Shown here: positions 5,288 to 18,870 of the stretch, piece after piece
Position numbering within the stretch: position 1 is the first letter of the stretch
How the letters are laid out: the number at the start of each line of letters is the position of its first letter
NCBI RefSeq assembly: GCF_000196355.1
Contig: NC_007615.1
Location: forward strand, 1 to 18,871
Source: Nitrosospira multiformis ATCC 25196
GTDB lineage: Bacteria; Pseudomonadota; Gammaproteobacteria; Burkholderiales; Nitrosomonadaceae
DNA: 18,871 nucleotides
Direction: 5' to 3'
Translations under genes and position numbers: made by a program
The notes under the pieces: model-generated
The model's database searches: none
Told to the model about the DNA's origin: nothing
Seen by the model: only the letters and a program-made list of their open reading frames with translations

Positions 5288-5632
5288 TCAATCCCCTTCA
5301 AACCCACCATCCGCAATATTTGTGAAAAGGAGAATTTCCTCTTCCAGATTCTGTTCAATATCCATATTCTGGTGCGGAATGCCAATAATCTCTATTGTGC
5401 TTTCAACTACCCGGTAAAATATTATGTGGCTGCCTTCCTTGAAACTGCGGTAGCCTTCCTTTACTTCATCTCTTGCCCGTCCCAGCATGGGGTTGTCTGC
5501 CAGCCAGCGCATCCGTTCGCGAAGTTCCAGGGTGTACTTGTCGGCTTGGGATTTTCCCCATTTCTGGATCGTGTATTTACGTATGTTGGTGATATCGGTT
5601 TTTGCGGCCGGCGAGAGGATGTAACGTTTCAT
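5288..5632 (-). CDS. parE: ParE/RelE-family type II toxin
   Basis: MKRYILSPAAKTDITNIRKYT...WGKSQADKY...LADNPMLGRARDEV..GYRSF..GSHIIFYRV is a typical ParE pattern. The start overlaps the stop of the upstream antitoxin gene (ATGA). Confidence 0.88.
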   Translation of the reverse strand: MKRYILSPAAKTDITNIRKYTIQKWGKSQADKYTLELRERMRWLADNPMLGRARDEVKEGYRSFKEGSHIIFYRVVESTIEIIGIPHQNMDIEQNLEEEILLFTNIADGGFEGD

Positions 5633-5886
5633 GCTTCACTTAACAGTTCGGCAAAAACTGCTTCGCCGTCCACCCCTTCCCCCCTGTTTAGCTGTCCCTC
5701 ACCTACAGCCAGTTTCGCCTGCAACCTTTCAAGTTTCATCTGTTGGTATTCCCGGGCTGACATAACCACGGCAACAGCTCGCCCATGTTTTTCAATGGTA
5801 AGTGGTTCCCGCTGAACGGTGTCCAGCATTTCTCCAAAATTATTTTTTGCCTCTTTGGCAGCAATAGCTTTCATATAAAACCCCAT
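5629..5886 (-). CDS. phd: Phd/YefM-family antitoxin
   Basis: KAIAAKEAKNNFGEMLDTVQREPLTIEKHGRAVAVVMSAREYQQM is a typical Phd/YefM N-terminal domain. The true start may be the second Met (5874). The gene is operonic with parE. Confidence 0.85.
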   Translation of the reverse strand: MGFYMKAIAAKEAKNNFGEMLDTVQREPLTIEKHGRAVAVVMSAREYQQMKLERLQAKLAVGEGQLNRGEGVDGEAVFAELLSEA

Positions 5887-5903
5887 AAATAGCTCTTATA
5901 GCC

Positions 5904-5917
5904 ATAATAGCTATTAT
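5904..5917. promoter_or_regulatory. Candidate Phd-ParE operator palindrome
   Basis: A perfect 14-bp palindrome ATAATAGCTATTAT lies 18 bp upstream of the phd ORF start. A degenerate second copy AAATAGCTCTTAT is at about 5887-5899. Confidence 0.5.
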
Positions 5918-6135
5918 ATCTATTGATGCAAGCAAAAAATTTTGGAGGATAGGATTATCGACGAGCTGGAGCTGGATTGCTGACACTACGAATCGGATAC
6001 AATCGGGTGAAGACGAAATACGTGGCCTTGAGCGAGGTTGCTATCAAGGGTGAGAAATCATCACAAAGGCCAGCCCTTGGAAGCTAGTCTTTGTTTTTAT
6101 ATGAGCTTCAAAATTTAGCAGGAGATAAACTCTCC

Positions 6136-6170: not shown

Positions 6171-6557
6171 ATGCAGGATGTAAGAAAAACAATAAAACCT
6201 GTGGAGTGGGTCGGCTCAAGTTTCAGGGATTTCCGCGCGTTTCCTGATGCGGTCAAAGATGAAATGGGCTATGCGCTACACCAAGCTCAAATAGGTGGCA
6301 AAAGCCTCAGTGCTAAACCGCTTCAGGGGTTTGGGGGAGCCGGTGTTCTTGAAATTGTGACTAATGAGATGGGAGATACGTTTCGCGCTGTTTATACGGT
6401 GAAATTCGCAACGGCCATCTATGTGCTGCACGCTTTTCAAAAGAAATCGAAAAGTGGAATTAAAACACCTGCTGAAGACATGAAACTGATTGAACAAAGA
6501 TTCAAAGCAGCGGAAGCCGATTACAGGCTTCAACTTGAAAAAGGAAAAATATCATGA
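6171..6557 (+). CDS. higB: HigB/Gp49-like (RelE/ParE superfamily) toxin
   Basis: KPVEWVGSSFRDFRAFPDAVKDEMGYALHQAQ...GAGVLEIV...FRAVYTVKFATAIYVLHAFQKKSKSGIKTP matches the phage Gp49/HigB-like family pattern closely. The toxin-first gene order and the ATGA overlap with the antitoxin gene fit this family. Confidence 0.88.
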   Translation: MQDVRKTIKPVEWVGSSFRDFRAFPDAVKDEMGYALHQAQIGGKSLSAKPLQGFGGAGVLEIVTNEMGDTFRAVYTVKFATAIYVLHAFQKKSKSGIKTPAEDMKLIEQRFKAAEADYRLQLEKGKIS

Positions 6558-6907
6558 CTCAAGATATTGAAAACACCATTGTGCGCGGTTCCGAAAACCT
6601 TTTTGCAGACCTTGGTTATGCCGACGCTGAAACACATCTGCTTAAAGCTGGACTGGTGAACCGTATTCAGGAAGTTATCAACGAACAAAAAATGACACAA
6701 ACCGTTGCAGCCAAACGTATGGGGCTTAGTCAACCAGATGTGTCACGCCTGCTCAAGGGACATTTCCGCGATATATCCGTAGAACGCCTGATGCGGCTGT
6801 TGACCCGGCTTGGTTGTGAGATTGACATTGTCATCCGGGAGCAAGGTAAAAAAACTTCCCGCCGTAATACCATCCATCTAGGAATGGACGTCAACGTTAC
6901 GGCTTAA
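6554..6907 (+). CDS. higA: XRE-family HTH antitoxin (HigA-like)
   Basis: NLFADLGYADAE...MTQTVAAKRMGLSQPDVSRLLKGHFRDISVERLMRLLTRLGCEIDIVI is the typical partner of Gp49/HigB-like toxins. Confidence 0.85.
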   Translation: MTQDIENTIVRGSENLFADLGYADAETHLLKAGLVNRIQEVINEQKMTQTVAAKRMGLSQPDVSRLLKGHFRDISVERLMRLLTRLGCEIDIVIREQGKKTSRRNTIHLGMDVNVTA

Positions 6908-7009: not shown

Positions 7010-7381
7010 ATGACCAAAGGACTTATTTTTCAGGAAATATGGAACAGCCTGCCATCTGACCGTAAGGCACAGATCGAGGCGCGTACCCGCAAGCTGGAAG
7101 CGGAATATCTGACCTTACAGGAACTACGCAAGGAAGCTGGGCTGACACAAGCCGGAGTATCGCAGGAGCTGGGAATGCCTCAATCCAATGTCTCCCGCCT
7201 GGAGAAAGGGTCTGACATGCTGCTTTCTACCTTGCGTCAGTATGTGGAAGCTGTTGGCGGAAAACTCAATCTCACCGTTGAGCTGCCAAACGAACCCCCT
7301 ATCAGGCTGAATGTGCTGAGTGACCTTGTAGACCACCCACTCACTATAGAAGGTTCGCAGCCGCAGGCACCGGTGCAATAA
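7010..7381 (+). CDS. XRE-family HTH protein, orphan antitoxin-like
   Basis: LTLQELRKEAGLTQAGVSQELGMPQSNVSRLEKGSDMLLSTLRQYVEAVGGKLNLTVELP is the pattern of HigA-type antitoxins that normally follow a RelE/HigB toxin gene. A strong GAAGGAGG RBS is present. No cognate toxin ORF lies upstream. Confidence 0.8.
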   Translation: MTKGLIFQEIWNSLPSDRKAQIEARTRKLEAEYLTLQELRKEAGLTQAGVSQELGMPQSNVSRLEKGSDMLLSTLRQYVEAVGGKLNLTVELPNEPPIRLNVLSDLVDHPLTIEGSQPQAPVQ

Positions 7382-7389
7382 GGGTGGAT

Positions 7390-7432
7390 TCTGCAAGATG
7401 AAACTATTTTCTCTTGCTTGCAGAAATTTTTT
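7390..7432 (+). terminator. Candidate terminator for the XRE gene, overlapping the 3' end of the convergent nuclease gene
   Basis: TCTGCAAG (7390-7397) pairs with CTTGCAGA (7417-7424); alternatively GCAAGA pairs with TCTTGC. AAATTTTTT follows. The loop is rather large. Confidence 0.35.
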
Positions 7433-8837
7433 GCGTAGCATCGATCACAACAATCTCTGAGGCTGGTTCTCCACTCTCCAGGAGTGCATCACGTATTGCT
7501 TGTATGGTCGTAAGTTTTTTACCTAAATCGCCATAGTCAAGCACCACGAAGACACCATGGCTGGTGCGTGACGCGTCCTTATAAATCTCAAGCTGTTCTT
7601 TGTACCCATGTACGACAGTGCCCGATGAGCGTTTCATTTCAACAAGAACACGGGCACTATAACCCTTAGAATATTTAAAATCGATTGGTCCTCCACCCAT
7701 ATTAGCTTCCGGTGAAATGTCAATATCATTGGCTTTACAGAAGCAGTCGGTAATTGCAAAGTAAATTAGCTGGGCTGCGCGTTCCTTCTTCGGTTTATCG
7801 TCTATCCAAAGGGCCTCCCAGAGATTGCCCTTTTCTACATGATGCTTGAACATATCCATTGTGTCGTTTACGACACGATGGATTTCATCGATACCCTTCT
7901 CAATTTCATATTTTTTATTGGATTTAAGTTCATATTCTTTGCTACCAAGTATCCTCCTCAATGTGTAGTAGCCTAGAACATCACTGTTCGGATCATAATA
8001 TGCCGCATTCTCTTTAATGGCGGCAATAAAGGCTTCGAAAAGTTCTTTGGATTGAAGTGCTGCTTCACGGACAGCCTTTTTGAGATCATCAACTTTTGGG
8101 CGAGTAATACCTGCCAGGAGATGATTTACCCGTGCTCGGATGGCAGCGTTAGCGTCTATTGCTGCCTCAATATCCGACCAATCATTAGCCATTGGTAACT
8201 CCCGAACAATATCAGCGGGCACAAGCACAATCGCCCGCTCTTTTCCATTTGCAGAGGTGTAATGGGGTAATGGGATATCAGGAGAGGTATCTGACGTCTT
8301 TAACGTAATACCCAGAGGTGTGCAAAATTCATGGGTGAGCTTCGCGAGCTGTGGCTCAATTATTCTGGAAGTTAGGTCACTGATAGTATCTGCGCCGACT
8401 TTTTCTTCAAAAAAGCCCATAAGTGAAATCATCTCAGGATCTTGAGAGCCAAGCTCAATAATTTCTTTAGCTGTTCGAAGAATCGCGTTACGAATTTCTT
8501 CAGGGCGGGAAGTGCCAGGACGGTCGCTCCTTCCATAACCAAGGCCATTTGCAGGAGCTTCGCGAAGGTTAAATTGATTCTGGGCAGCCCTCCAAGCTGC
8601 ATCCCCCTCCTTCTTAGAAATGGCAAGCAGTCTAATTACATTTTCAAAATATTTCCTAAATGCTTTGTACGCTTCCTCACTAATGATCTTGTTTGAGCAT
8701 TTATCAAGCAAGATGGGATCAATGAACAAGCGCGTATCAACCGTCAGAAAGGGGTCGATCAATCCTGCCTTTGCAAGTTCATCCGGCGCAATTTTGAAAT
8801 GTTTGGAGAAAAGAAGGGGATTTGAGAAAGATGCCAT
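7404..8837 (-). CDS. 477-aa protein with a C-terminal RecB/Cas4-type PD-(D/E)xK nuclease domain and an unknown N-terminal domain of about 340 aa
   Basis: The motifs appear in order: helix KE352RAAQLIYF, GGGPID386F (GAT at 7680-7682), VLVE400-M-K402 (GAAATGAAA at 7632-7640), and Q415-LEI-Y419 (QxxxY). The gene is monocistronic and visibly AT-richer than its neighbours. I recognise no motif in residues 1-340. Confidence 0.6.
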   Translation of the reverse strand: MASFSNPLLFSKHFKIAPDELAKAGLIDPFLTVDTRLFIDPILLDKCSNKIISEEAYKAFRKYFENVIRLLAISKKEGDAAWRAAQNQFNLREAPANGLGYGRSDRPGTSRPEEIRNAILRTAKEIIELGSQDPEMISLMGFFEEKVGADTISDLTSRIIEPQLAKLTHEFCTPLGITLKTSDTSPDIPLPHYTSANGKERAIVLVPADIVRELPMANDWSDIEAAIDANAAIRARVNHLLAGITRPKVDDLKKAVREAALQSKELFEAFIAAIKENAAYYDPNSDVLGYYTLRRILGSKEYELKSNKKYEIEKGIDEIHRVVNDTMDMFKHHVEKGNLWEALWIDDKPKKERAAQLIYFAITDCFCKANDIDISPEANMGGGPIDFKYSKGYSARVLVEMKRSSGTVVHGYKEQLEIYKDASRTSHGVFVVLDYGDLGKKLTTIQAIRDALLESGEPASEIVVIDATQKISASKRK

Positions 8838-8996
8838 AATTTCGCTAAATAGAATTGAGCGAAAACTTATTTCGCCGCATTAAAACAATCTGCTATTGAG
8901 AGGAGCCGTTTAGATTGTAAGTTTTACGGCTGAGCAAGCAATTGGACTTAGGTACACCTGTCGCTGAGTATGGGTATTGAAGTTCTGTTGAGTCGC

Positions 8997-9042
8997 GGTA
9001 AATCTACTATTGATAAAATACGTTATCAATAGTAGATTTACC
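8997..9042. promoter_or_regulatory. Perfect 20-6-20 palindrome: candidate recombinase core site and/or operator
   Basis: GGTAAATCTACTATTGATAA (8997-9016), spacer AATACG, TTATCAATAGTAGATTTACC (9023-9042). The arms are exact reverse complements. The palindrome ends 2 nt before the recombinase ATG. Confidence 0.6.
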
Positions 9043-9044
9043 CA

Positions 9045-10016
9045 ATGACAACTCAAAACCCCGATTCCCAAAATGCCCTGCCTGCTACTAATCGGCGGCT
9101 TACTGCCGTTGCCTATCAGCGCCTCGCCGACATACCCCCTGAAATTGAATGGTTCGCCAACCTTCCGAATGATGCAACCCGCCGCGCTTACAACAATGCG
9201 CTAAAGGATTTTATGGGCTTTACTGACATCACCCGGCCTGATGAATTCCGTAGCGTAACCCGTGCGCATGTAATTGCCTGGCGCGACGAGCTGGTTAAAC
9301 GCTCTTTAAGTGGAACGACCATCCGCCACCGTCTCGCCGCTTTATCCTCTCTGTTCGAGTATTTATGCGAAAGAAACGCGGTAACCCATAATCCTGTGAA
9401 GGGGGTGAAGCGTCCCCCGGTGGAAAGCTATGAAGGTAAAACTCCGGCTCTTGGCGATCACCAGGCGCGTGCGCTGCTCGATGCTCCGCATAGTCTCTCA
9501 CTCAAGGGCAAGCGTGACCGTGCCTTGCTTGCTACCCTGCTCTACCATGCGCTGCGGCGCGACGAGCTATGCAGGCTCACCGTCAAGGATTTCAGGCATG
9601 AACGGCGTGGGGTCCGTCACTTGCGGGTCCTGGGTAAAGGCGGCAAGACCCGTTATATCCCGTTACACCCTGCCGCCAGCACTCTCATCACCGAGTATCT
9701 GGAAGCAGCGGGACATGGCGCGGAAGATTCAGCTCCCCTTTTCCACCCCGTCAGTAATAACTGCGCTGGGGTTTCAAGCAAGGCCCTTACGCCCGACGGG
9801 GTTTATAAGCTGGTACGCGAATATTCTTCAAACCTTGGTTTTGAAATTGGCCCGCACTCCTTGCGGGCTACCGCTGCGACTAACGCCCTGGACCATCAGG
9901 CCGATATTTCCAAAGTGCAGGAATGGCTGGGCCATGCCAATATCTCCACTACCCGCATTTATGACCACCGCAGGAGCCGACCCGAGGATAGTCCGACGTT
10001 TAAGGTTAGTTATTAA
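9045..10016 (+). CDS. Tyrosine recombinase / integrase (XerC/XerD-like)
   Basis: The N-terminal SAM-like region is TIRHRLAALSSLFEYL. The catalytic-domain motifs are RDRALLATLLYHALRRDEL (Arg), GKGGKTRYIPLHP, HSLRATAAT (HxxR), and LGHANISTTRIYDH (His and the nucleophilic Tyr). Confidence 0.9.
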   Translation: MTTQNPDSQNALPATNRRLTAVAYQRLADIPPEIEWFANLPNDATRRAYNNALKDFMGFTDITRPDEFRSVTRAHVIAWRDELVKRSLSGTTIRHRLAALSSLFEYLCERNAVTHNPVKGVKRPPVESYEGKTPALGDHQARALLDAPHSLSLKGKRDRALLATLLYHALRRDELCRLTVKDFRHERRGVRHLRVLGKGGKTRYIPLHPAASTLITEYLEAAGHGAEDSAPLFHPVSNNCAGVSSKALTPDGVYKLVREYSSNLGFEIGPHSLRATAATNALDHQADISKVQEWLGHANISTTRIYDHRRSRPEDSPTFKVSY

Positions 10017-10327: not shown

Positions 10328-10897
10328 TTAATTCTTAATTAAGATTCCAATAGGAATAAAGGGGGCATGGTTATATATTTGAAGCCCACGAACTTCAGAA
10401 AATTCTGAGGCTGATCTATAAGTTTTAAATAAACCAAATTTATTTATTGTTTTACTCAGGTAATTTTGAAAGAAGGGTATTTCACTTATTTTACCACACC
10501 CACTTAGGCCGCTAATTAAACCACGTAAATCTAGGATGTCGAATCCCATTAGTCGCCATCCCATATTTATAAGGGCAGTTTCCGAAGGCTGCTCCTCAAA
10601 CCATCCAAACCCATAGTGTTCTCTAAGGGCAATAGTATTTATTTCTAAACATGTCAACGAAATAAGACTTAATTGATCTATAGAAATATGATTTGATCGA
10701 CAAGTATTTATAAGGTCTTCAATATGCGTCGCAAGTGTTAGAGGATTACTTAAAGCATGAGCGTTATTTTGTATAAGATCATCAACTAGGGGAGGGCGAG
10801 GCCAAATATTTGGGTCGCCACTGATTTGCATGTGATTATTCAAATCCAGAGAAATTCTTAGATCGAATCCCAAACTTATTCTTCGATTCCTCATCAT
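10328..10897 (-). CDS. Putative immunity protein for the RHS C-terminal toxin (189 aa from the ATG; the track ORF extends to a TTG at 10930)
   Basis: The gene lies immediately downstream of the rhs gene. The minus strand reads TAATGATG, so the rhs TAA stop (10899-10897) shares its final A with an ATG (10897-10895), which suggests translational coupling. The gene is markedly AT-rich, like the toxin tip. No recognisable family, signal peptide or TM segment. Confidence 0.55.
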   Translation of the reverse strand: MMRNRRISLGFDLRISLDLNNHMQISGDPNIWPRPPLVDDLIQNNAHALSNPLTLATHIEDLINTCRSNHISIDQLSLISLTCLEINTIALREHYGFGWFEEQPSETALINMGWRLMGFDILDLRGLISGLSGCGKISEIPFFQNYLSKTINKFGLFKTYRSASEFSEVRGLQIYNHAPFIPIGILIKN

Positions 10898-13800
10898 TAT
10901 TGGTGAGGCCAAGTTGTATAATTGCCACAATCTTTTATTTCTTCTTTTCCTACTGGAGCTACCGGGGGAAATTGAGTTGTTCCTTTCGATCCACTCCCTC
11001 TATTCCAATAGCATTGACAAGTGTTAGGATTTTGTCCACGACTCCAAATATGATAGTGTGGATCCCACCCATTATGTGTGTGTCCAGTGTCGGGTTCATA
11101 ACATTGGGTTCCCTGAGGTGGATTACAGGGGGGGCAAATAGGTGGTTGAGCAGTTTTATTCTGAGCCGTTTTGGATTCTGAGTTTCCTGAGCACGCGTCA
11201 TATATCGTTGCTCCAGTGATTAAAATAGCCCAACCAGCCCACTTCTGCCAGGCTATATCGCTCGGATCCGGGGTTGCTATGTCAGAACTGGCCCCGCCAA
11301 GTATCCAAGGAAGTGCCCTCAGACCTAAAGGATCAATCATATTAATTGGATTTCCTCCCACATACCCATAAAGATTTAATCCTCCTTTTTCTCCAATCGG
11401 GTCACGCGATAGCCACTTCGCCGTTTTCGGGTCATAGGCCCGGAAATTCGTCAGGTACAATCCGCTCTGCTGATGATAGAACATCCCCGCATAGCGAAAG
11501 TCAACTGAAATCCGCCCACTCCCCGCTATCTGGTTTCCATAAGGATCATAGTCGTAGCTTGCCACCTTGGCCCCATTCTGGGCCGCCATCACGTCCCGCA
11601 CCGAGCCTAGATGGTCAGTGCCGTAATAAAGCAGAGTGCCGCCCTGCGGAATTGCCATGCCTTGCGGGTAATAGCGGCGTGTGACCACATCGCCTGCCGT
11701 TCTGGCCTGGCACAGCGTAGCGCCGCACCAGAGATGACGGGTTTCTGTTATTGCTCCTCCATTATTTTCGACAATAGCCAGCCGCCGCCCCATGCCATCG
11801 TAGCGGAACGTGGTCGCCTTGCTGGGATCGTTCTTGTAGCTGATGGAGAGCAGACGGTTTTCGGCATCCCACTGATAGGTGCGGACTCCGTCATCCTTCA
11901 GATTGCCGTTGGCGTCGTAACTGAAGCTTTCACTGTTAAAACTCGTCAATTGGTTGACGGTGTTGTAATGCGTCAACGCGCCATTGAGGGAAGTCAGGTT
12001 GTCAGCGGCGTCATAACCATAGCTGAAGCTTCCCCCGGATGAAGGCTGGGCGGAGAGGAGGCGGTCAGCGCCATCATAGGCGTAGTGCCAGCTCTTCTGC
12101 GCTGCTCCCCCCGCAGTTTCCGTCAGAGTGGAAATCTGGTTTTCCGGGGTGGTGGCATAGTGGAAACCGCGCGCCAGACCGCTGTTCGTGATCGACTTCA
12201 GGCGGCGGTCATGGGTGTTGTCCTCATAGCCCCACTGCGTTCCCACAGCCCCGGCCTGCTGGCTTAAAAGCTGCCCAGTCTGACCCAGATAGCTGAAATT
12301 GAAGGAGCCCAGCGGATTGGTATGCTGGGTGACGCGGTCGAGCCTGTCATAGGCAAAGGACTCGGTTATCGTATCCACCTTGCGGCTGGTCATCCGCCCC
12401 AATGCATCGTACTGGTAGGAAATCTCGTCATTGGTATAAGGCCCGTTCTCACCTGTCAGCTTGAGCGCCCCCAGGGAGCCGACAGCGCCATACTGGAACT
12501 GGGTGGTTCCCGCCCCATCGGTCATGGTGGTTCTGCGCGGGAAATAGGGGTCGTAGGCGAAGCTTACGCCCGGTGTGGGACTTATAGCATTGGCATAACT
12601 CAGCGCCGCGAGCCGGTCGTCCTTCGTATAGCCATACTGCCTGGTCTGTCCCAAAGCGTCGGTTACGCTTATCAGGCGGCTTGCGCTGTCATAGGCATAG
12701 GTTTCCCTGGAATCGTCGGCATAAACCTTGGCAATGGGGCGGCTCTGGATATCGATATCCCAGCGCGTCATGTTCCCGTTGCCGTCGGTGATGCTGCGCA
12801 ACACCCCGTTACGGTAATAGCTGTAACTGGTGGTCTGACCCGCAGGATCGGTCATCGAGGTCATGCGCCGGTTGGCGTCATAGCTGTAGCTCGTGGCCCT
12901 CCCCATCCTATCTTTTGTTTCTACCAGGTCGAGCAGGTCATAGGTATTCAGCGTGCTGGTTCCATCGGGATAGAGGATTTGCGTAACCCGGTCGAGGGCG
13001 TCGTATTCATAGGCCAGGGTGTGGCCTTCCGAATCGGTGGCGGTGGCAACGCGGTCGAAGGCGTCATAGGTGAAGCTGTGCTGCACCGCGTTATCCGGGT
13101 TGGTGATCGATATCAGCCGTCCCAGCCCATCATAGGCATAGCGCGTGGTCTGCCCGAGCGCGTCGGTCACGCCCGTTACCTGGCCATCCGAGTTGTAGGT
13201 ATAGGAAGTTGTCTTTCCCGCCGCATCGGTCGCAGTCAGGGGAAGGTGCTGGCTGTTGTAGGTGAAGGCCGCCAGCGTGGCCTGGCCGCTGCCCGTGGTC
13301 TGCTGGATGGAAGTAAGATCGATGTCATTGGAAGCGTAGGTAAAGGAAGTCTTGCGTCCTGTAGGATCTATGGCTGTGAGCGGCTTGCCGATGCTGTTAT
13401 AGGTAAATCTTCTTGCTTGCGTGGAGCCGTCATCTAATACTCGGCCGATTGCTATCGGTGTCCCGGCAGTTCCTTCCATGATGGAATTACCTTGTCCCGG
13501 GTAGGTATTCCAGACGCGGCGCTCAAGGGGCTGTTTGCTGCTTTCTATGATCGGCGAGGTCTGTCCAGCCGGGTTATGGAGCCAGTGAATGATTCGGGCT
13601 TGGGTGTAATCGGTATGAGTGATAGCATAAAGATGCTTGTCCCAGTGGAAAGTATTACGGTAGTAAAGAAAACCGTTCAGTATCCCCATGCCAGCCGGAG
13701 CCACAGGATCACCATTGGGTATGCCGGAAGCAAAATGCCGGAATTCCAGTCGTTCGGTAAAACCCATCGGATCGGTCATTTCCAAGAAGCGTGAGTTTTC

Positions 13801-15696
13801 ATAGATGTTCTGCCCATAGGTGAAATGATGGGTACCATAGGGTGTCGTCATTTCATTGATGAGCCCCCCCGTATCGTATTTGAAGGAGGAAGTAATGCCG
13901 ATCACATCGGTGATCGAGGCGAGACGTCTGTTTGTGTCGTATGTCAGTTCGGCACGGCGTCCGAATGGATCGGTTATTCCGGTTACGAGCAGGGGATTGG
14001 CAGGGAACTCATAACTGAAGATGGTGTTGCGGCCAGTGGCATCCGTGAGCGATACCAGGCGCAACTGATTGTCATAATTGAACGTTAGCGCGTTACCCGA
14101 AGGATCGATTATTTGGCTTAAGAACATGCGGCGCGGGTATACGGTTGCGCCATCGCTCTGGGCGAATACCTGCTTGCTTCCATCGGGCATGCGCAATTCA
14201 TAGGAAGTGGCGGGACCGGTGGCGGGTATGCGAACCAGCACTGCCTGACCCTGACGTTCAGGCGAGAACGCGCCGGATGCCGTTGAATAGCTGTAGCCGA
14301 TCGAATAATCCACCGATCCCCCGCCTGCCGCATAGCGCAGAACTGAGCGGCCCGGCGAGTCGGGAGTATCCTGAACCCAGGACAGCACGTTCAGTGTCCA
14401 TTTGGGGCTGATATTGAAAAAGCTGAAATTGGCTGGCTGGCTGGCTTCGCGCTGATTGTAGGTCAGGCTGATTTTGGCGGAAGGCCCCTTCGGCGGCTGG
14501 TACCCGACCGGAACGTCGCTTAAGTTCAGGCTCACCAGCATCATTTTAGCGTTCACTACACACATGGCTGGTGGTGACGCTGCGGAGCCAGTGAGAGGAA
14601 CAGGGCCTTTTGGATTGGAGCAGGTCAAGTTGCTATCAAGCTTCTGTGTCGTACCGGGCTGATTAACACTTGTCTGTCCCATTCCATAGATACGCCTTGC
14701 CTCTTCAGGAGTGGCCATACGCCAGGACGCAACTTTCTGGGTTCCAGCCGGAACCAGGAAATACCCGCTTGCCTCCGCATCGATGGCCTCCTTGGTGAGC
14801 CAGGCATCCCCGCTTGCGAAGGTGGGATCCTGGACATGGTAGAGGCCGTTCTGCTCACCGATGATGGCAGCATAATGATTCAGTTTCCAGTTCACCACTG
14901 AGGGGACGGGGATGGGCTGTCCGGGAGCACGGAAAATCAGCCGATGAGGTACGTTGGCCTTGCTTGCCAGCTCCGATACCTGGGCAAGCGTGTAGCCATG
15001 CGGACCTGAGCGCGCCGCATCCATGATGGCGATTTTTGCCGGATCGGCCTGGGCCGAGACCAGCAGACTCTTGAGCGCCATGGGACCGCAAAGGTAAGCC
15101 TTGTCGTACTCGTTTCGGAACATCCACAGGCTTTCATGAGCGTCCGTGATCAATTCCGTGGCGGGACCGCTGATGGGCCGGTCCTTGATATCGGCAAGCA
15201 GTTTTTCAAGCTCGTCCGCATGTCCCAGGCGGGAGTGCATGCGCATCAGCTCCCCCATGGCGCGGTCTGCCAGCATCTTGCCCATAGGATTATCGGCGGG
15301 ACGAGTTCTTTCCGTCTGCCAGGCCCGCTCCCACGCATTTATCGCCCTGGAGAAATAGCCCTGGCGGTAATAGGCAAGCCCCAGATTGGCGAGAATCCCG
15401 ACATTCCATCCCGAGCGCGGATACTCTTTAAGGAAAGTCTCGAATACGGCCAGATCTTCAAAAGACGACTGGCTGCGATGGGTGGAGATGGCTTCCGCGA
15501 GGGCCCGGTCTTCCTTCGGCGTGGTTCCATACATGGGAACCAGAGGCTCCTCGAATCCATCCACCTTGAGAAGCGGAAGAGGCGCGGGGTTTTCTGGAGG
15601 GGCGGCATGGAGGAGAGGGCTTGCCAGCAAAAGCAGCGTGGCAAAAAGAGAGGGAATGAAACGGGAAACGGCCATACTGGACCAGAGGCGAGCCAT
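10897..15696 (-). CDS. rhs: Secreted RHS/YD-repeat polymorphic toxin (1599 aa)
   Basis: Dozens of YD repeats are present (for example YTYNSDGQVTGVTDALGQTTRYAYDGLGRLISITNPDN). The RHS-associated core ends FRAYDPKTAKWLSRDPIGEKGGLNLYGYVGGNPINMIDPLGL. The N-terminus is a signal peptide. An AGGAG RBS lies 5 nt upstream of the ATG at 15696. Confidence 0.95.
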   Translation of the reverse strand: MARLWSSMAVSRFIPSLFATLLLLASPLLHAAPPENPAPLPLLKVDGFEEPLVPMYGTTPKEDRALAEAISTHRSQSSFEDLAVFETFLKEYPRSGWNVGILANLGLAYYRQGYFSRAINAWERAWQTERTRPADNPMGKMLADRAMGELMRMHSRLGHADELEKLLADIKDRPISGPATELITDAHESLWMFRNEYDKAYLCGPMALKSLLVSAQADPAKIAIMDAARSGPHGYTLAQVSELASKANVPHRLIFRAPGQPIPVPSVVNWKLNHYAAIIGEQNGLYHVQDPTFASGDAWLTKEAIDAEASGYFLVPAGTQKVASWRMATPEEARRIYGMGQTSVNQPGTTQKLDSNLTCSNPKGPVPLTGSAASPPAMCVVNAKMMLVSLNLSDVPVGYQPPKGPSAKISLTYNQREASQPANFSFFNISPKWTLNVLSWVQDTPDSPGRSVLRYAAGGGSVDYSIGYSYSTASGAFSPERQGQAVLVRIPATGPATSYELRMPDGSKQVFAQSDGATVYPRRMFLSQIIDPSGNALTFNYDNQLRLVSLTDATGRNTIFSYEFPANPLLVTGITDPFGRRAELTYDTNRRLASITDVIGITSSFKYDTGGLINEMTTPYGTHHFTYGQNIYENSRFLEMTDPMGFTERLEFRHFASGIPNGDPVAPAGMGILNGFLYYRNTFHWDKHLYAITHTDYTQARIIHWLHNPAGQTSPIIESSKQPLERRVWNTYPGQGNSIMEGTAGTPIAIGRVLDDGSTQARRFTYNSIGKPLTAIDPTGRKTSFTYASNDIDLTSIQQTTGSGQATLAAFTYNSQHLPLTATDAAGKTTSYTYNSDGQVTGVTDALGQTTRYAYDGLGRLISITNPDNAVQHSFTYDAFDRVATATDSEGHTLAYEYDALDRVTQILYPDGTSTLNTYDLLDLVETKDRMGRATSYSYDANRRMTSMTDPAGQTTSYSYYRNGVLRSITDGNGNMTRWDIDIQSRPIAKVYADDSRETYAYDSASRLISVTDALGQTRQYGYTKDDRLAALSYANAISPTPGVSFAYDPYFPRRTTMTDGAGTTQFQYGAVGSLGALKLTGENGPYTNDEISYQYDALGRMTSRKVDTITESFAYDRLDRVTQHTNPLGSFNFSYLGQTGQLLSQQAGAVGTQWGYEDNTHDRRLKSITNSGLARGFHYATTPENQISTLTETAGGAAQKSWHYAYDGADRLLSAQPSSGGSFSYGYDAADNLTSLNGALTHYNTVNQLTSFNSESFSYDANGNLKDDGVRTYQWDAENRLLSISYKNDPSKATTFRYDGMGRRLAIVENNGGAITETRHLWCGATLCQARTAGDVVTRRYYPQGMAIPQGGTLLYYGTDHLGSVRDVMAAQNGAKVASYDYDPYGNQIAGSGRISVDFRYAGMFYHQQSGLYLTNFRAYDPKTAKWLSRDPIGEKGGLNLYGYVGGNPINMIDPLGLRALPWILGGASSDIATPDPSDIAWQKWAGWAILITGATIYDACSGNSESKTAQNKTAQPPICPPCNPPQGTQCYEPDTGHTHNGWDPHYHIWSRGQNPNTCQCYWNRGSGSKGTTQFPPVAPVGKEEIKDCGNYTTWPHQ
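10900..11319 (-). other. 140-aa variable C-terminal toxin tip of the RHS protein (unassigned family)
   Basis: The tip comprises a hydrophobic segment WAGWAILITGATIY, then the Cys/His cluster CPPCNPPQGTQCYEPDTGHTHNGWDPHYHIWSRGQNPNTCQCYW. The region is AT-richer than the YD core. Confidence 0.7.
11320..11334 (-). other. DPLGL motif marking the RHS core / toxin-tip boundary
   Basis: The reverse complement of 11320-11334 is GATCCTTTAGGTCTG, encoding D-P-L-G-L. This is the conserved PxxxxDPxGL demarcation of RHS proteins. Confidence 0.9.
14749..15114 (-). other. C39-like (papain-fold) cysteine peptidase domain within the RHS N-terminal region
   Basis: YLC203GPMALKSLL ... WKLNH274YAAIIGEQNGLYHVQD290P has the CG...HY..(hydrophobic)...DP spacing typical of peptidase C39 and C39-like domains. 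It is preceded by TPR-like helices (NLGLAYYRQGYFSRAINAWERAW). Confidence 0.55.
15604..15696 (-). other. Sec-type signal peptide of the RHS protein
   Basis: MARLWSSMAVSRFIPSLFATLLLLASPLLHA/APPENP has a basic n-region, a hydrophobic core and an AxA-like cleavage site (LHA). Confidence 0.7.
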
Positions 15697-15806
15697 GCGT
15701 TCTCCTGAAAGAATGTCTGGAATTCCGACCGCATCCTTGAAACAGGGAGGCGGCCTGATCTACATCGTCATGCTGAAACCTTTTGAAACCTTGTTGCCGG
15801 TAATAC

Positions 15807-16472
15807 TCATGCCTTGACTTTCCTGCGGCGCAGAGCCCACGCTCCCGCCCCTCCCAAACAGAGCAAGGCGAGGCTTGAAGGCTCAGGTAGCGGGTTGGGC
15901 GGTGGCGTGGTCGAACCTGGTGCGAAGGTCAGGTTATCCAGTGTGAATTGCGTGCAGTTCACTGTGCCGCACTGGAACGGGTCCGTTGTGGAGCCAGTTG
16001 CAGCCGCGAAGAAATTCAGTTCGTTGATGCCGGTGAAGCCAAAGTTTACAAACAGGGGAGCAGCCGTATCGAGGGTCAGGGTTGTTGTGAACAGCAAAGT
16101 TCCATTCAGCCTGCCCTGCACCGTGAGGCTCAGATCATCGTAATAGCCGGAACCCAGATAAGCGCTAACAAAGTCGAAGGGATCGTCGGCTTCTATTTTG
16201 CCGATAACGGGAGTAACGATCGGGCCGAACGACTCACCCCCGCTATAGGCGGCATTATCGGGGGAGACAATGCCGTTATTGAATCCGGGAAAGCCGGGAA
16301 TGCTCGTATAGGCCGAGAAATTAGTCCAGGTGAAACCCTGATAAGGGCTCAGGGTATCCAGAACCAGATCGCCGCCTGAAGCGTCAAGATCATCGAAATT
16401 GACGATGGCGGCAGAAGCAAGGGAAATCTGGGAAAGCAGGAGGGTGGCAGTAAAAGCGATTTTGGAAAACAT
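15807..16472 (-). CDS. PEP-CTERM sorting-domain protein (221 aa)
   Basis: The signal peptide is MFSKIAFTATLLLSQISLASA. The C-terminus PLPEPSSLALLCLGGAGAWALRRRKVKA has a PEP motif, a TM helix and an Arg/Lys cluster. The body has the FDDL...YQGFTWTNF pattern common in PEP-CTERM proteins. A GGAGGAG RBS is present. Confidence 0.88.
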   Translation of the reverse strand: MFSKIAFTATLLLSQISLASAAIVNFDDLDASGGDLVLDTLSPYQGFTWTNFSAYTSIPGFPGFNNGIVSPDNAAYSGGESFGPIVTPVIGKIEADDPFDFVSAYLGSGYYDDLSLTVQGRLNGTLLFTTTLTLDTAAPLFVNFGFTGINELNFFAAATGSTTDPFQCGTVNCTQFTLDNLTFAPGSTTPPPNPLPEPSSLALLCLGGAGAWALRRRKVKA

Positions 16473-17829: not shown

Positions 17830-18870
17830 ATGCCAAAAAAGAAAACGCTCGTAGCAGTACCCTCAGCAGTACCCCCTCGCGCGCCTATAAAAAGCCTTCA
17901 ATATGACCTGTTCTCGCTGTTTGTCACTAATGAACCCAATTCAGTATCAAATACGATTGAACTATGGGACTGCATCCCAAAATATTTTTTCACCCCCAAG
18001 CAGGTAGAAAAACTGCGGACAGCAGACGGGCTGGCAAAGCCTTACAAATGGGAATATTCCTATAACGGCCTGCCATGCGCGGTAAAAATACAGCCAGCCC
18101 TGATAGAAGAAGAGGACGGAAATTTTAAAGCGTATTTTCCAAGCGTGACTGAGGAGCTTGTAGAAGAAGCCCTGAAAAAGATTTTTACCGACAAGCATTA
18201 CGGTACTCACGATCCGCAAAATTCTGAAAGCTGGGTCAAATTTTCATTAAGCATGCTTTACCGCGAACTCATGACCAGGGGCCGAAGCCGCAGCTATAAG
18301 GAGATTAAACGCGCCATCGAGGTCATGAATAAATGCAACATAGCCTTTTACAAGGATGGAAAAGAGCTTTGGAGTGGCGCCATACTTCAGGACCTGGTGA
18401 CAGTAGACCGCAAGGAGTATATCGCCGATACCGACTCCCACCATATAGCGCGATTGCCACTGTTTATATCCCACGCCATTAACCAGCTCGAATACCGCCA
18501 GTTCAACTATAACCGCCTGATGAGCTGCAACGAGCAGTTGGCGCGTTGGATTTACAAACGGTTAATTAACCGCTTCCGCCAAGCCAGTTTCATAAATGAA
18601 TACCATTTCATGTATTCCGATATTGAGCAATCGAGCGGCTTACTACAGCAAGGCCGAGAAACCGACAATCGAAAAAAAGTTATATCTTCTCTGGAAGAGT
18701 TACAAAAATGCGGGATTCTGATGAGATATGAAACCGATGAACGAAAAGAAGGCCGCAAAGTTATCGATATTAAATATACGCTCTACGCCGGTTCAGATTT
18801 TATCGGGGAACAAAAAGCAGCTAATAAACGGGCAAGCGATGCAGAGCTGAGTATGCCTGTGGATAAGTAG
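17830..18870 (+). CDS. repA: Plasmid replication initiator (iteron-binding Rep)
   Basis: This is the last gene of the par-rep operon, and its stop is followed across the window junction by the iteron array. The N-terminal pattern DLFSLF...NTIELWDCIPKYFF and the 346-aa size resemble TrfA/RepA-type initiators. The family assignment is not verified. Confidence 0.7.
   Translation: MPKKKTLVAVPSAVPPRAPIKSLQYDLFSLFVTNEPNSVSNTIELWDCIPKYFFTPKQVEKLRTADGLAKPYKWEYSYNGLPCAVKIQPALIEEEDGNFKAYFPSVTEELVEEALKKIFTDKHYGTHDPQNSESWVKFSLSMLYRELMTRGRSRSYKEIKRAIEVMNKCNIAFYKDGKELWSGAILQDLVTVDRKEYIADTDSHHIARLPLFISHAINQLEYRQFNYNRLMSCNEQLARWIYKRLINRFRQASFINEYHFMYSDIEQSSGLLQQGRETDNRKKVISSLEELQKCGILMRYETDERKEGRKVIDIKYTLYAGSDFIGEQKAANKRASDAELSMPVDK
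18858..18866. promoter_or_regulatory. DnaA box (TGTGGATAA) inside the last codons of rep
   Basis: Exact 9-mer in the same orientation as the three boxes at 179, 322 and 387. It lies 12 bp upstream of iteron 1 once the sequence is circularised. Confidence 0.5.

Follow-up and report, generated by a model that had tools for sequence, protein, structure and literature searches.

We analysed an 18,871-nucleotide stretch of DNA from Nitrosospira multiformis ATCC 25196 (contig NC_007615.1), hereafter called the window, and within it a gene on the minus strand (7404-8837) whose product joins a conserved N-terminal domain to a predicted C-terminal PD-(D/E)xK nuclease and is probably a candidate single-gene anti-phage or anti-plasmid system. 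The window looks like a small mobilisable plasmid, and its genes include those for MobC, a relaxase and a coupling-protein-like protein together with a lone helix-turn-helix (HTH) gene, a tyrosine recombinase, ParA and a Rep-like gene. An earlier reading of the DNA letters, termed here the original prediction, had called an open reading frame (ORF) of 477 amino acids (aa) at this position, which is borne out by the ORF list and the translation. It starts with ATG, and its product is 100% identical to an NCBI 'hypothetical protein' of the same strain (P0001). The codons of E352, D386, E400, K402, Q415 and Y419 were checked individually and lie where they had been claimed. The arrangement of the locus had also been described correctly, since the gene converges with the toxin-antitoxin region, the HTH gene at 7010-7381 being separated from it by a 22-bp gap, and diverges from the tyrosine recombinase gene (9045-10016) across 207 bp of intergenic DNA.

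The Predicted C-Terminal Nuclease Domain

The C-terminal domain carries the ordered signature E/D/ExK/QxxxY that had been singled out in the original prediction, and the signature proved near-invariant across the family and set on a restriction-endonuclease-like core. The six residues show no variation in 34 close homologues and little or none in sets of 61 and 101 more distant ones, the conservation reaching down to ~30% identity. Taken singly, D386 is invariant in two alignments (A1 and A3) and present in 98% of the distant members, K402 and Q415 are invariant, and E400 and Y419 are each 98-100% conserved; across 30-80% identity D386, E400 and K402 stay at 98-100%. Q356, E377, G381-x-G383, F387 and K388 are likewise invariant or nearly so.

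A first AlphaFold run, based on the 34 close homologues, modelled this domain with a pLDDT of 63 and was replaced by a run on an alignment of 101 diverse members, which reached a pLDDT of 87.1 and a pTM of 0.83. In the resulting AlphaFold2 (AF2) model the domain is ordered as helix 352-369, strands 377-379, 386-391 and 395-403, helix 408-422, strand 428-434, helix 441-454 and strand 461-466, and so contains the alpha-beta-beta-beta-alpha-beta core of restriction endonucleases. E352 sits in the first helix as proposed, D386 at the start of strand 2, the ExK motif on strand 3, and Q415 and Y419 both on the helix that follows. A structure prediction lacking such a fold had been named beforehand as an argument against the nuclease; the fold is present in the model.

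Searches of the members with hidden Markov models (HMMs) gave weak matches of one kind. The Cas4 model of PADLOC was matched by three distant members (E 0.0015-0.0067, n = 61), and LmuA was matched too; among 61 members the weak Pfam matches were to PDDEXK_9 (6/61, covering residues 353-425 in member P0307), DpnII-MboI (3/61), SfsA and AF1548-like models. Every weak non-self match of the members is to a PD-(D/E)xK family. The query itself gave no match to the Cas4 and PDDEXK_1 models, and the four-cysteine Fe-S cluster of the Cas4/AddB/Dna2 type is absent, C367 being the sole conserved cysteine. From alignment and model we accept the C-terminal domain as a putative PD-(D/E)xK nuclease with RecB/Cas4-type motifs, and do not accept strict RecB/Cas4 membership. 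The "RecB/Cas4-type" label of the original prediction therefore stands at the level of motifs, QxxxY included, and is not established as a family assignment; the Cas4 cysteine cluster is missing.

The N-Terminal Domain

Residues 1 to ~340 are mostly helical in a confident AF2 model, with a pLDDT of mostly 80-97. Nothing had been recognised in this part of the protein, and we recognised nothing either in Pfam-A, NCBIfam, PDB sequences or the Foldseek libraries. The full query found nothing useful in local copies of Pfam-A and NCBIfam or in the PDB sequences, and the 101-member profile found only noise in the latter. A confident match to a housekeeping or plasmid-maintenance family had been named as an argument against a defence role; the library searches returned none. 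The sole database link of the domain is the PADLOC model PDC-M36A, to which residues 29-182 of the query align at profile positions 26-172 of 457 (E = 5e-7) and which is matched by 61/61 distant members, with a best E of 1.4e-19.

The original prediction had pictured the N-terminus as a variable sensor. The variability in this picture did not survive, for the N domain is the conserved and constant part here. Its mean pairwise identity over residues 8-180 is 38%, against 42% for the nuclease, and it contains an invariant polar set made of D34, D40-P41, E93, G100-Y101, G108, D150-xx-S153-D154, N230, R234, N238, K253, Y281, D286 and E335. In the AF2 model N230, R234 and N238 follow one another at i, i+4 and i+8 along one helix. 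Motif-level resemblances to an ARH-like 'GxDTxxD' motif, the 'GPD' loop of HhH-GPD proteins, terpene-synthase Asp motifs and the DEDD Yx4D motif found support in no search, and we do not claim them. The features of the gene are collected in Table 1.

Table 1. Positions in the window of the gene, its modules and motifs, and the adjoining intergenic region.
Feature	Position	Strand	Remarks
Complete gene	7404..8837	-	477 codons + stop, stop codon 7404-7406; DUF8370+DUF8371 member; from ORF list and translation
N-terminal module (DUF8370), residues 1-340	7818..8837	-	conservation, AF2 model, PDC-M36A match; boundary at 340 approximate
C-terminal putative PD-(D/E)xK nuclease module (DUF8371), residues 341-477	7407..7817	-	AF2 order, weak HMM matches
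Conserved tail S472-A-S474	end of C-terminal module	-	
E352 codon, helix before beta core	7782..7784	-	codon check; invariant
D386 codon, putative metal-binding Asp, start of strand 2	7680..7682	-	codon check
E400-M-K402, ExK motif, strand 3	7632..7640	-	codon check
Q415-LEI-Y419, QxxxY motif, helix after strand 3	7581..7595	-	codon check
D150-TIS-D154, best conserved N-domain motif	8376..8390	-	consensus VGPDTISD; N-terminus of helix 149-159
Divergent intergenic region shared with recombinase gene	8838..9044	.	presumed promoter; contains inverted repeat 8840-8864

Family and Distribution

At E <= 0.001 the family comprises 1,708 clusters at 50% identity, of which 421 have E <= 1e-30, and nearly all of the best matches listed are 460-490 aa long and align end to end. 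Precomputed Pfam assignments place exactly two domains, DUF8370 (PF28123) in the N-terminal and DUF8371 (PF28130) in the C-terminal part, on the identical protein and on every full-length homologue; both entries are newer than our local Pfam copy, and both are labelled 'domains of unknown function'. Our literature search found no paper mentioning DUF8370 or DUF8371, and similar searches for PDC-M36 and for the plasmid found nothing.

Members occur in Alpha-, Beta- and Gammaproteobacteria, Bacteroidota, Cyanobacteria, Firmicutes and Actinobacteria. A scan with only two peptide patterns matched 246 of 185,579 species genomes, which is a lower bound, and in a plasmid collection 12 of 72,556 entries matched, all below 60% identity, most members being chromosomal; none was found in the 50,697 phage genomes scanned. 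The distribution is patchy, cross-phylum and horizontally transferred. With close relatives ~80% of amino acids and ~71% of nucleotides are common, and the DNA similarity ends exactly at the ends of the ORF, which as a sequence comparison indicates strong purifying selection on a horizontally moving single gene without recognisable transposon ends. Because the DNA similarity ends in this way, we also rejected a transposon or homing unit.

Several records of the family bear names of their own. NCBI names some members (among P0020, P0054, P0083, P0315 and P0331) 'chromosomal replication initiator DnaA' or 'recombinase family protein', labels which look like annotation errors, and UniRef labels some as 'Protein NO VEIN C-terminal domain-containing', for which local Pfam gave no NOV_C match. 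In five loci, mostly from metagenome-assembled genomes (MAGs), the gene is split into two adjacent ORFs (L062, L066, L075, L088 and L013); these are frameshifts or pseudogenes and not tandem duplicates.

Nuclease Loss and Appended Effectors

A search with a distant Calothrix homologue led to relatives in which a core of ~480 aa is followed by EAD1, by EAD1 and a CHAT protease, by TIR or by EAD11, the positions having been verified with local Pfam; in some long forms the C-terminal addition could be assigned to no domain. EADs are described, in passages of the article by Kaur, Burroughs, Iyer and Aravind (2020, PMC7159879), as adaptor domains that couple effectors to bacterial conflict systems, EAD1 mainly recruiting effectors. 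In an alignment of 151 members we compared proteins with and without a C-terminal addition of at least 60 aa for the hexad E352/D386/E400/K402/Q415/Y419. The hexad is kept in 0/24 proteins with such an addition and in 125/127 proteins without (Fisher p = 7e-26, not corrected for phylogeny). E400 is lost in 19 of the 24 long forms, and the other five combine D386E with loss of Q415, while the polar residues of the N domain, the D150-TIS-D154 motif included, are kept in all 24. In a neighbour-joining tree of the N domain, built with no bootstrap, the TIR, EAD1/CHAT and EAD11 long forms make up at least three separate groups, with intact stand-alone forms placed among them.

Since the hexad and the N-domain residues part company in this manner, the N domain is the constant module of the family, and the nuclease an exchangeable effector that is replaced by other classic immune effectors. 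Such exchange of effectors is characteristic of immune systems.

Two further observations concern the loci of the long forms. One EAD1-CHAT form adjoins another EAD1 protein, a Type ISP restriction-modification (RM) enzyme and AbiTii. Cyanobacterial EAD1-CHAT and TIR long forms have a small upstream ORF in common, with 39% identity over 70 aa (L094:7470-7946 and L095:128-337), which neither the window nor the stand-alone loci contain and which may be a partner that only the long forms have. The small upstream ORFs in L004 and L094 are unrelated to each other.

Gene Neighbourhood

The survey covered 84 non-redundant loci, each taken with flanks of up to 10 kb. No neighbour family occurs in more than 13 of the 84, and the recurrent ones are recombinases and integrases, including a family that we read as serine recombinases and whose member in L004 has a Pfam Resolvase domain. 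Given that no neighbour is shared more widely, that neighbour strands are divided ~50:50 and that upstream gaps are mostly >50 bp, the gene is solitary and has no conserved partner gene. This agrees with the monocistronic, standalone gene of the original prediction. The HTH and recombinase neighbours of the window are not conserved partners in the related loci, and no adjacent antitoxin or immunity gene is conserved in the 84.

The 143 immediate neighbours are mixed. Type ISP, IIG and II RM enzymes, methylases, AspBHI, Mrr, AbiEii and integrases appear repeatedly, and ordinary metabolic genes appear as well. Individual loci illustrate the setting: in Rhizobium leguminosarum the gene lies with SIR2, a Type IIG RM enzyme, AIPR, a resolvase and an integrase; in Chitinophaga with GmrSD, Fic and RadC on an integrative element; on a Legionella plasmid with RM and AbiE; in Calothrix with a pPIWI-RE module; and in Bacillus subtilis in the rlmCD-LXG variable region. 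The accessory or defence-island context that had been proposed is therefore seen around relatives, which often adjoin RM, Abi, SIR2 and integrase genes. In Vibrio cholerae (L008, 1-9419) the homologue lies ~1 kb downstream of a filamentous-prophage block (Rep_trans, Zot) and adjoins matP; it may ride with a filamentous phage or sit at its integration site.

Immune Nuclease or Another Function?

The explanation we favour, and hold with some reservation to be the probable one, is that the small mobilisable plasmid carries, as accessory cargo, an immune nuclease that is complete in a single polypeptide. As a candidate, the single-gene defence system of the original prediction has gained ground: there is no partner gene, the neighbourhoods are rich in defence and mobile genes, the N domain is homologous to PDC-M36A, and nuclease-dead relatives bear TIR or EAD1-CHAT instead. 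In such a system the DUF8370 module of ~340 residues, the constant part with a pocket-like set of invariant acidic and polar residues, would sense an infection or foreign-DNA cue or license activity, and the DUF8371 module would act as a Mg2+-dependent PD-(D/E)xK endonuclease or exonuclease of the E...D...ExK...QxxxY type that cuts DNA, either the invader's or, in an abortive mode, the cell's own. What we show are the motifs, the predicted topology of the fold, the solitary gene, the patchy and horizontally transferred distribution, the defence-rich neighbourhoods and the replacement of the nuclease by TIR or CHAT in relatives; control of the nuclease by the N domain, the cue to which that domain responds and a protective phenotype are inferred.

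Several points weigh against this explanation. Foldseek searches of either domain against PDB and BFVD gave nothing at E <= 0.001 (best E 0.47 and 0.041), and when hhalign compared the family profile with the C-terminal domain of E. coli RecB and with lambda Exo, each as a single sequence, the probability stayed below 1%, a one-sequence template being insensitive; because both were negative, the nuclease assignment rests on motifs, topology and weak matches. PDC-M36 is itself no more than a defence candidate. The association of addition with hexad loss and the tree of the N domain carry the limits given above, and the homologues in Aeromonas and in a Rhodospirillales MAG are surrounded by plain core or metabolic genes. 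EAD1-only forms with a dead nuclease suggest that the N domain itself may be an effector. Judged from the alignments, this domain is about as conserved as enzymes typically are, and with its ~12 invariant polar residues it suits an enzymatic role no less than the role of sensing fast-evolving phage proteins.

The last two points lead to the main rival of the immune nuclease, a two-enzyme protein in which the N domain is the principal, metal-dependent catalyst, acting for example on nucleotides, DNA bases or DNA ends, and the nuclease serves DNA targeting or a second step; the protein would still belong to conflict or defence, and would not be a sensor-effector. The ~12 polar residues that persist superfamily-wide, members with a dead nuclease included (D34, D40, E93, D150, D154, N230, R234, N238, K253, Y281, D286 and E335), speak for it, as do the placement of N230, R234 and N238 on one helix and an N-domain conservation near that of the nuclease. 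In EAD1-only forms with a degenerate nuclease (P0376) there is no other candidate activity, EAD1 being presented in passages of PMC7159879 as mainly a recruiter of effectors. We nevertheless consider this explanation unlikely, for the N domain resembles no known enzyme family or fold in the searches run, invariant catalytic residues are also found in many immune sensors, e.g., NTPases, and the strict association of a lost nuclease with a gained TIR or CHAT points to the nuclease as the executing activity of the stand-alone forms. A special case of defence, which we find distinctly improbable, would be Type IV (modification-dependent) restriction, the N domain reading a modified base or backbone and the nuclease cutting nearby. 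Enzymes of the MspJI/AspBHI class are of similar size and two-domain layout, the gene is likewise a solitary nuclease with no methyltransferase as fixed partner, and RM and methylase neighbours are frequent but variable; yet no match to an SRA, EVE, YTH or PUA-type reader domain or to a PADLOC Type IV model was found, an invariant acidic pocket would be unusual in a base-reader, and restriction enzymes do not characteristically carry TIR or CHAT fusions.

The gene's setting also bears on two readings outside defence. The divergent Xer-like recombinase, with a 46-bp perfect palindrome between the two genes, and the serine and tyrosine recombinases that are the commonest nearby genes would suit a nuclease of plasmid maintenance, recombination or repair, working with the adjacent tyrosine recombinase or in general DNA metabolism, and RecB-type motifs are found in repair nucleases. 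Only 12 of 72,556 plasmids carry relatives, most being chromosomal, the recombinase and HTH neighbours are not conserved partners, and both the patchy distribution, unlike that of housekeeping genes, and the TIR and CHAT fusions, unlike repair, make this role very improbable. A selfish mobile nuclease spreading its own gene, either homing-endonuclease-like or a PD-(D/E)xK transposase, could account for a solitary gene in many unrelated insertion contexts, sometimes between core genes, and for high amino-acid conservation across phyla. We give it hardly any credence, as beyond the ORF the closest loci show neither DNA similarity nor terminal repeats nor conserved flanks, there is a single copy per locus (the five apparent doubles being split ORFs), and no association with an intein, an intron or a target gene was seen. 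Distribution, the want of conserved partners and the want of element ends thus contradict the maintenance or repair role and the selfish nuclease alike.

Starting from the immune nuclease, we also put forward a bolder proposal, as a tentative one that may well prove wrong: DUF8370 would be a new fold and the constant catalytic or ligand-active core of a widespread, unrecognised one-protein immune family (>1,700 clusters at 50% identity), coupling interchangeably to a PD-(D/E)xK nuclease, to TIR or, via EAD1, to a CHAT protease, and its invariant acidic pocket would sense or catalyse by a chemistry that is new to bacterial immunity. What was already known is the family as two catalogued Pfam DUFs and a distant PADLOC candidate, and single-protein sensor-nuclease defence as a kind. 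New here are the N domain without detectable relative, its constant status, and the mutual exclusion of an intact nuclease and an appended TIR, CHAT or EAD in the sample examined. If the immune reading is true, the protein would give access to a large family of compact immune proteins, whose nuclease, TIR and CHAT versions form a natural effector-replacement series around one conserved domain and give an experimental handle on what that domain detects or catalyses; the database names of some members (DnaA, recombinase) would also be corrected. At 1.4 kb the gene is easily cloned and tested.

The Surrounding Plasmid

The gene has a GC content of 0.440, compared with 0.495 for the window and 0.527 and 0.553 for the genes on either side. 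As the original prediction had noted, it is AT-richer than its surroundings, though only modestly, yet higB (0.444) and rep (0.453) are alike. An inverted repeat next to the start codon (8840-8846/8858-8864) is indeed present, and when extended has 11-nt arms at 91% complementarity. It is not above chance: 1.8 kb contain 22 pairs of this kind, this one included, shuffled sequences fold at least as well as the 5' leader (z = +0.48), and no conservation was found upstream of the start codon in homologous loci. We take this repeat as chance and attach no meaning to it. An Rfam search of the window found nothing.

Further upstream, the 50 nt at 8929-8978 are 96% identical to an unannotated intergenic stretch of plasmid pNRS527-2 of Nitrosospira sp. 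NRS527, the sole DNA-level match to them in PLSDB, and have no Rfam match. The 46-bp perfect palindrome (8997-9042) has 20-nt arms and a 6-nt spacer, and ends 2 bp before the start codon of the recombinase gene at 9045. Read in either direction it contains the hexamers TTGATA-17-TAGATT, which resemble a promoter, and it could serve as an operator or as a site on which the recombinase itself acts. On the other side of the gene, the HTH gene 7010-7381 (+) encodes 123 aa with HTH_31/HTH_37 and weak PADLOC matches to HTH_VI and CapH. It has no homologue in ~95 related loci and is therefore not a conserved regulator of the family.

Two type II toxin-antitoxin pairs lie at 5288-5886 (-) and 6171-6907 (+), ParE with Phd/YefM and a Gp49/HigB-like toxin with an HTH_37 antitoxin. 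An AT-rich short tandem or palindromic repeat at the phd start (5883-5924, ATAGCTATT x4) is probably the phd operator. The region 10328-16472 (-) is a polymorphic-toxin cassette on a small plasmid: it includes a 1,599-aa Rhs/YD-repeat protein (10897-15696), preceded by a 221-aa protein with a PEP-CTERM-like C-terminus and followed by an overlapping, very AT-rich 200-aa ORF (GC 0.357, no family match), possibly the immunity gene of the Rhs/YD protein. Three direct repeats of 22-23 bp at 5-70 (AAGTCCGAGGTTTGGCTCCCA..) are probably oriV iterons; on a circular record they would closely follow the Rep-like gene (17830-18870).

Comparison with Known Systems

PDC-M36 is one of 145 PADLOC phage defence candidates that were nominated because they lie within loci of BREX, DISARM or Type I RM (Payne et al. 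2024, bioRxiv 10.1101/2024.01.29.577857), and its cassette consists of three genes, FAM_01399>>FAM_00303>>FAM_00303 (supplementary file 8; bioRxiv 10.1101/2024.01.29.577857). The N domain of our query is distantly homologous to PDC-M36A, and the likeness ends there: in the three proteins examined for hit coordinates, only positions 9-269 of the 457 in the profile are matched, which correspond to the N domain, and in place of a three-gene cassette we see no conserved neighbour in 84 loci. No other protein of the window matched PDC-M36.

In Shedu (SduA) a single polypeptide combines a regulatory or sensing N-terminus with a C-terminal PD-(D/E)xK effector, and no partner gene is needed. The parallel drawn in the original prediction holds for this outline, an N-terminal part followed by a C-terminal PD-(D/E)xK domain with no partner gene here. 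It is an analogy of layout and goes no further: the query and 61 relatives gave no match to Shedu, DUF4263 or SduA HMMs in Pfam or PADLOC, homology is lacking, and the N domain here is constant.

The EAD-coupled conflict systems are approached by the cyanobacterial relatives with EAD1, EAD1-CHAT, EAD11 or TIR, and the EAD1-CHAT relative that adjoins an EAD1 protein fits the homotypic-adaptor logic set out in passages of PMC7159879. The protein of the window differs from these systems in having no EAD, TIR or CHAT and an intact nuclease, and its DUF8370/DUF8371 core is not found named in those passages.

With the RecB/Cas4/lambda-Exo nucleases the protein shares the ordered motifs, E in the first helix, D on strand 2, ExK on strand 3 and QxxxY on the next helix, and it differs from them in a large N domain unrelated to helicase or Cas partners. 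The closest comparison is with the DUF8370+DUF8371 proteins, which have the same domains in the same order and are the family to which the protein belongs.

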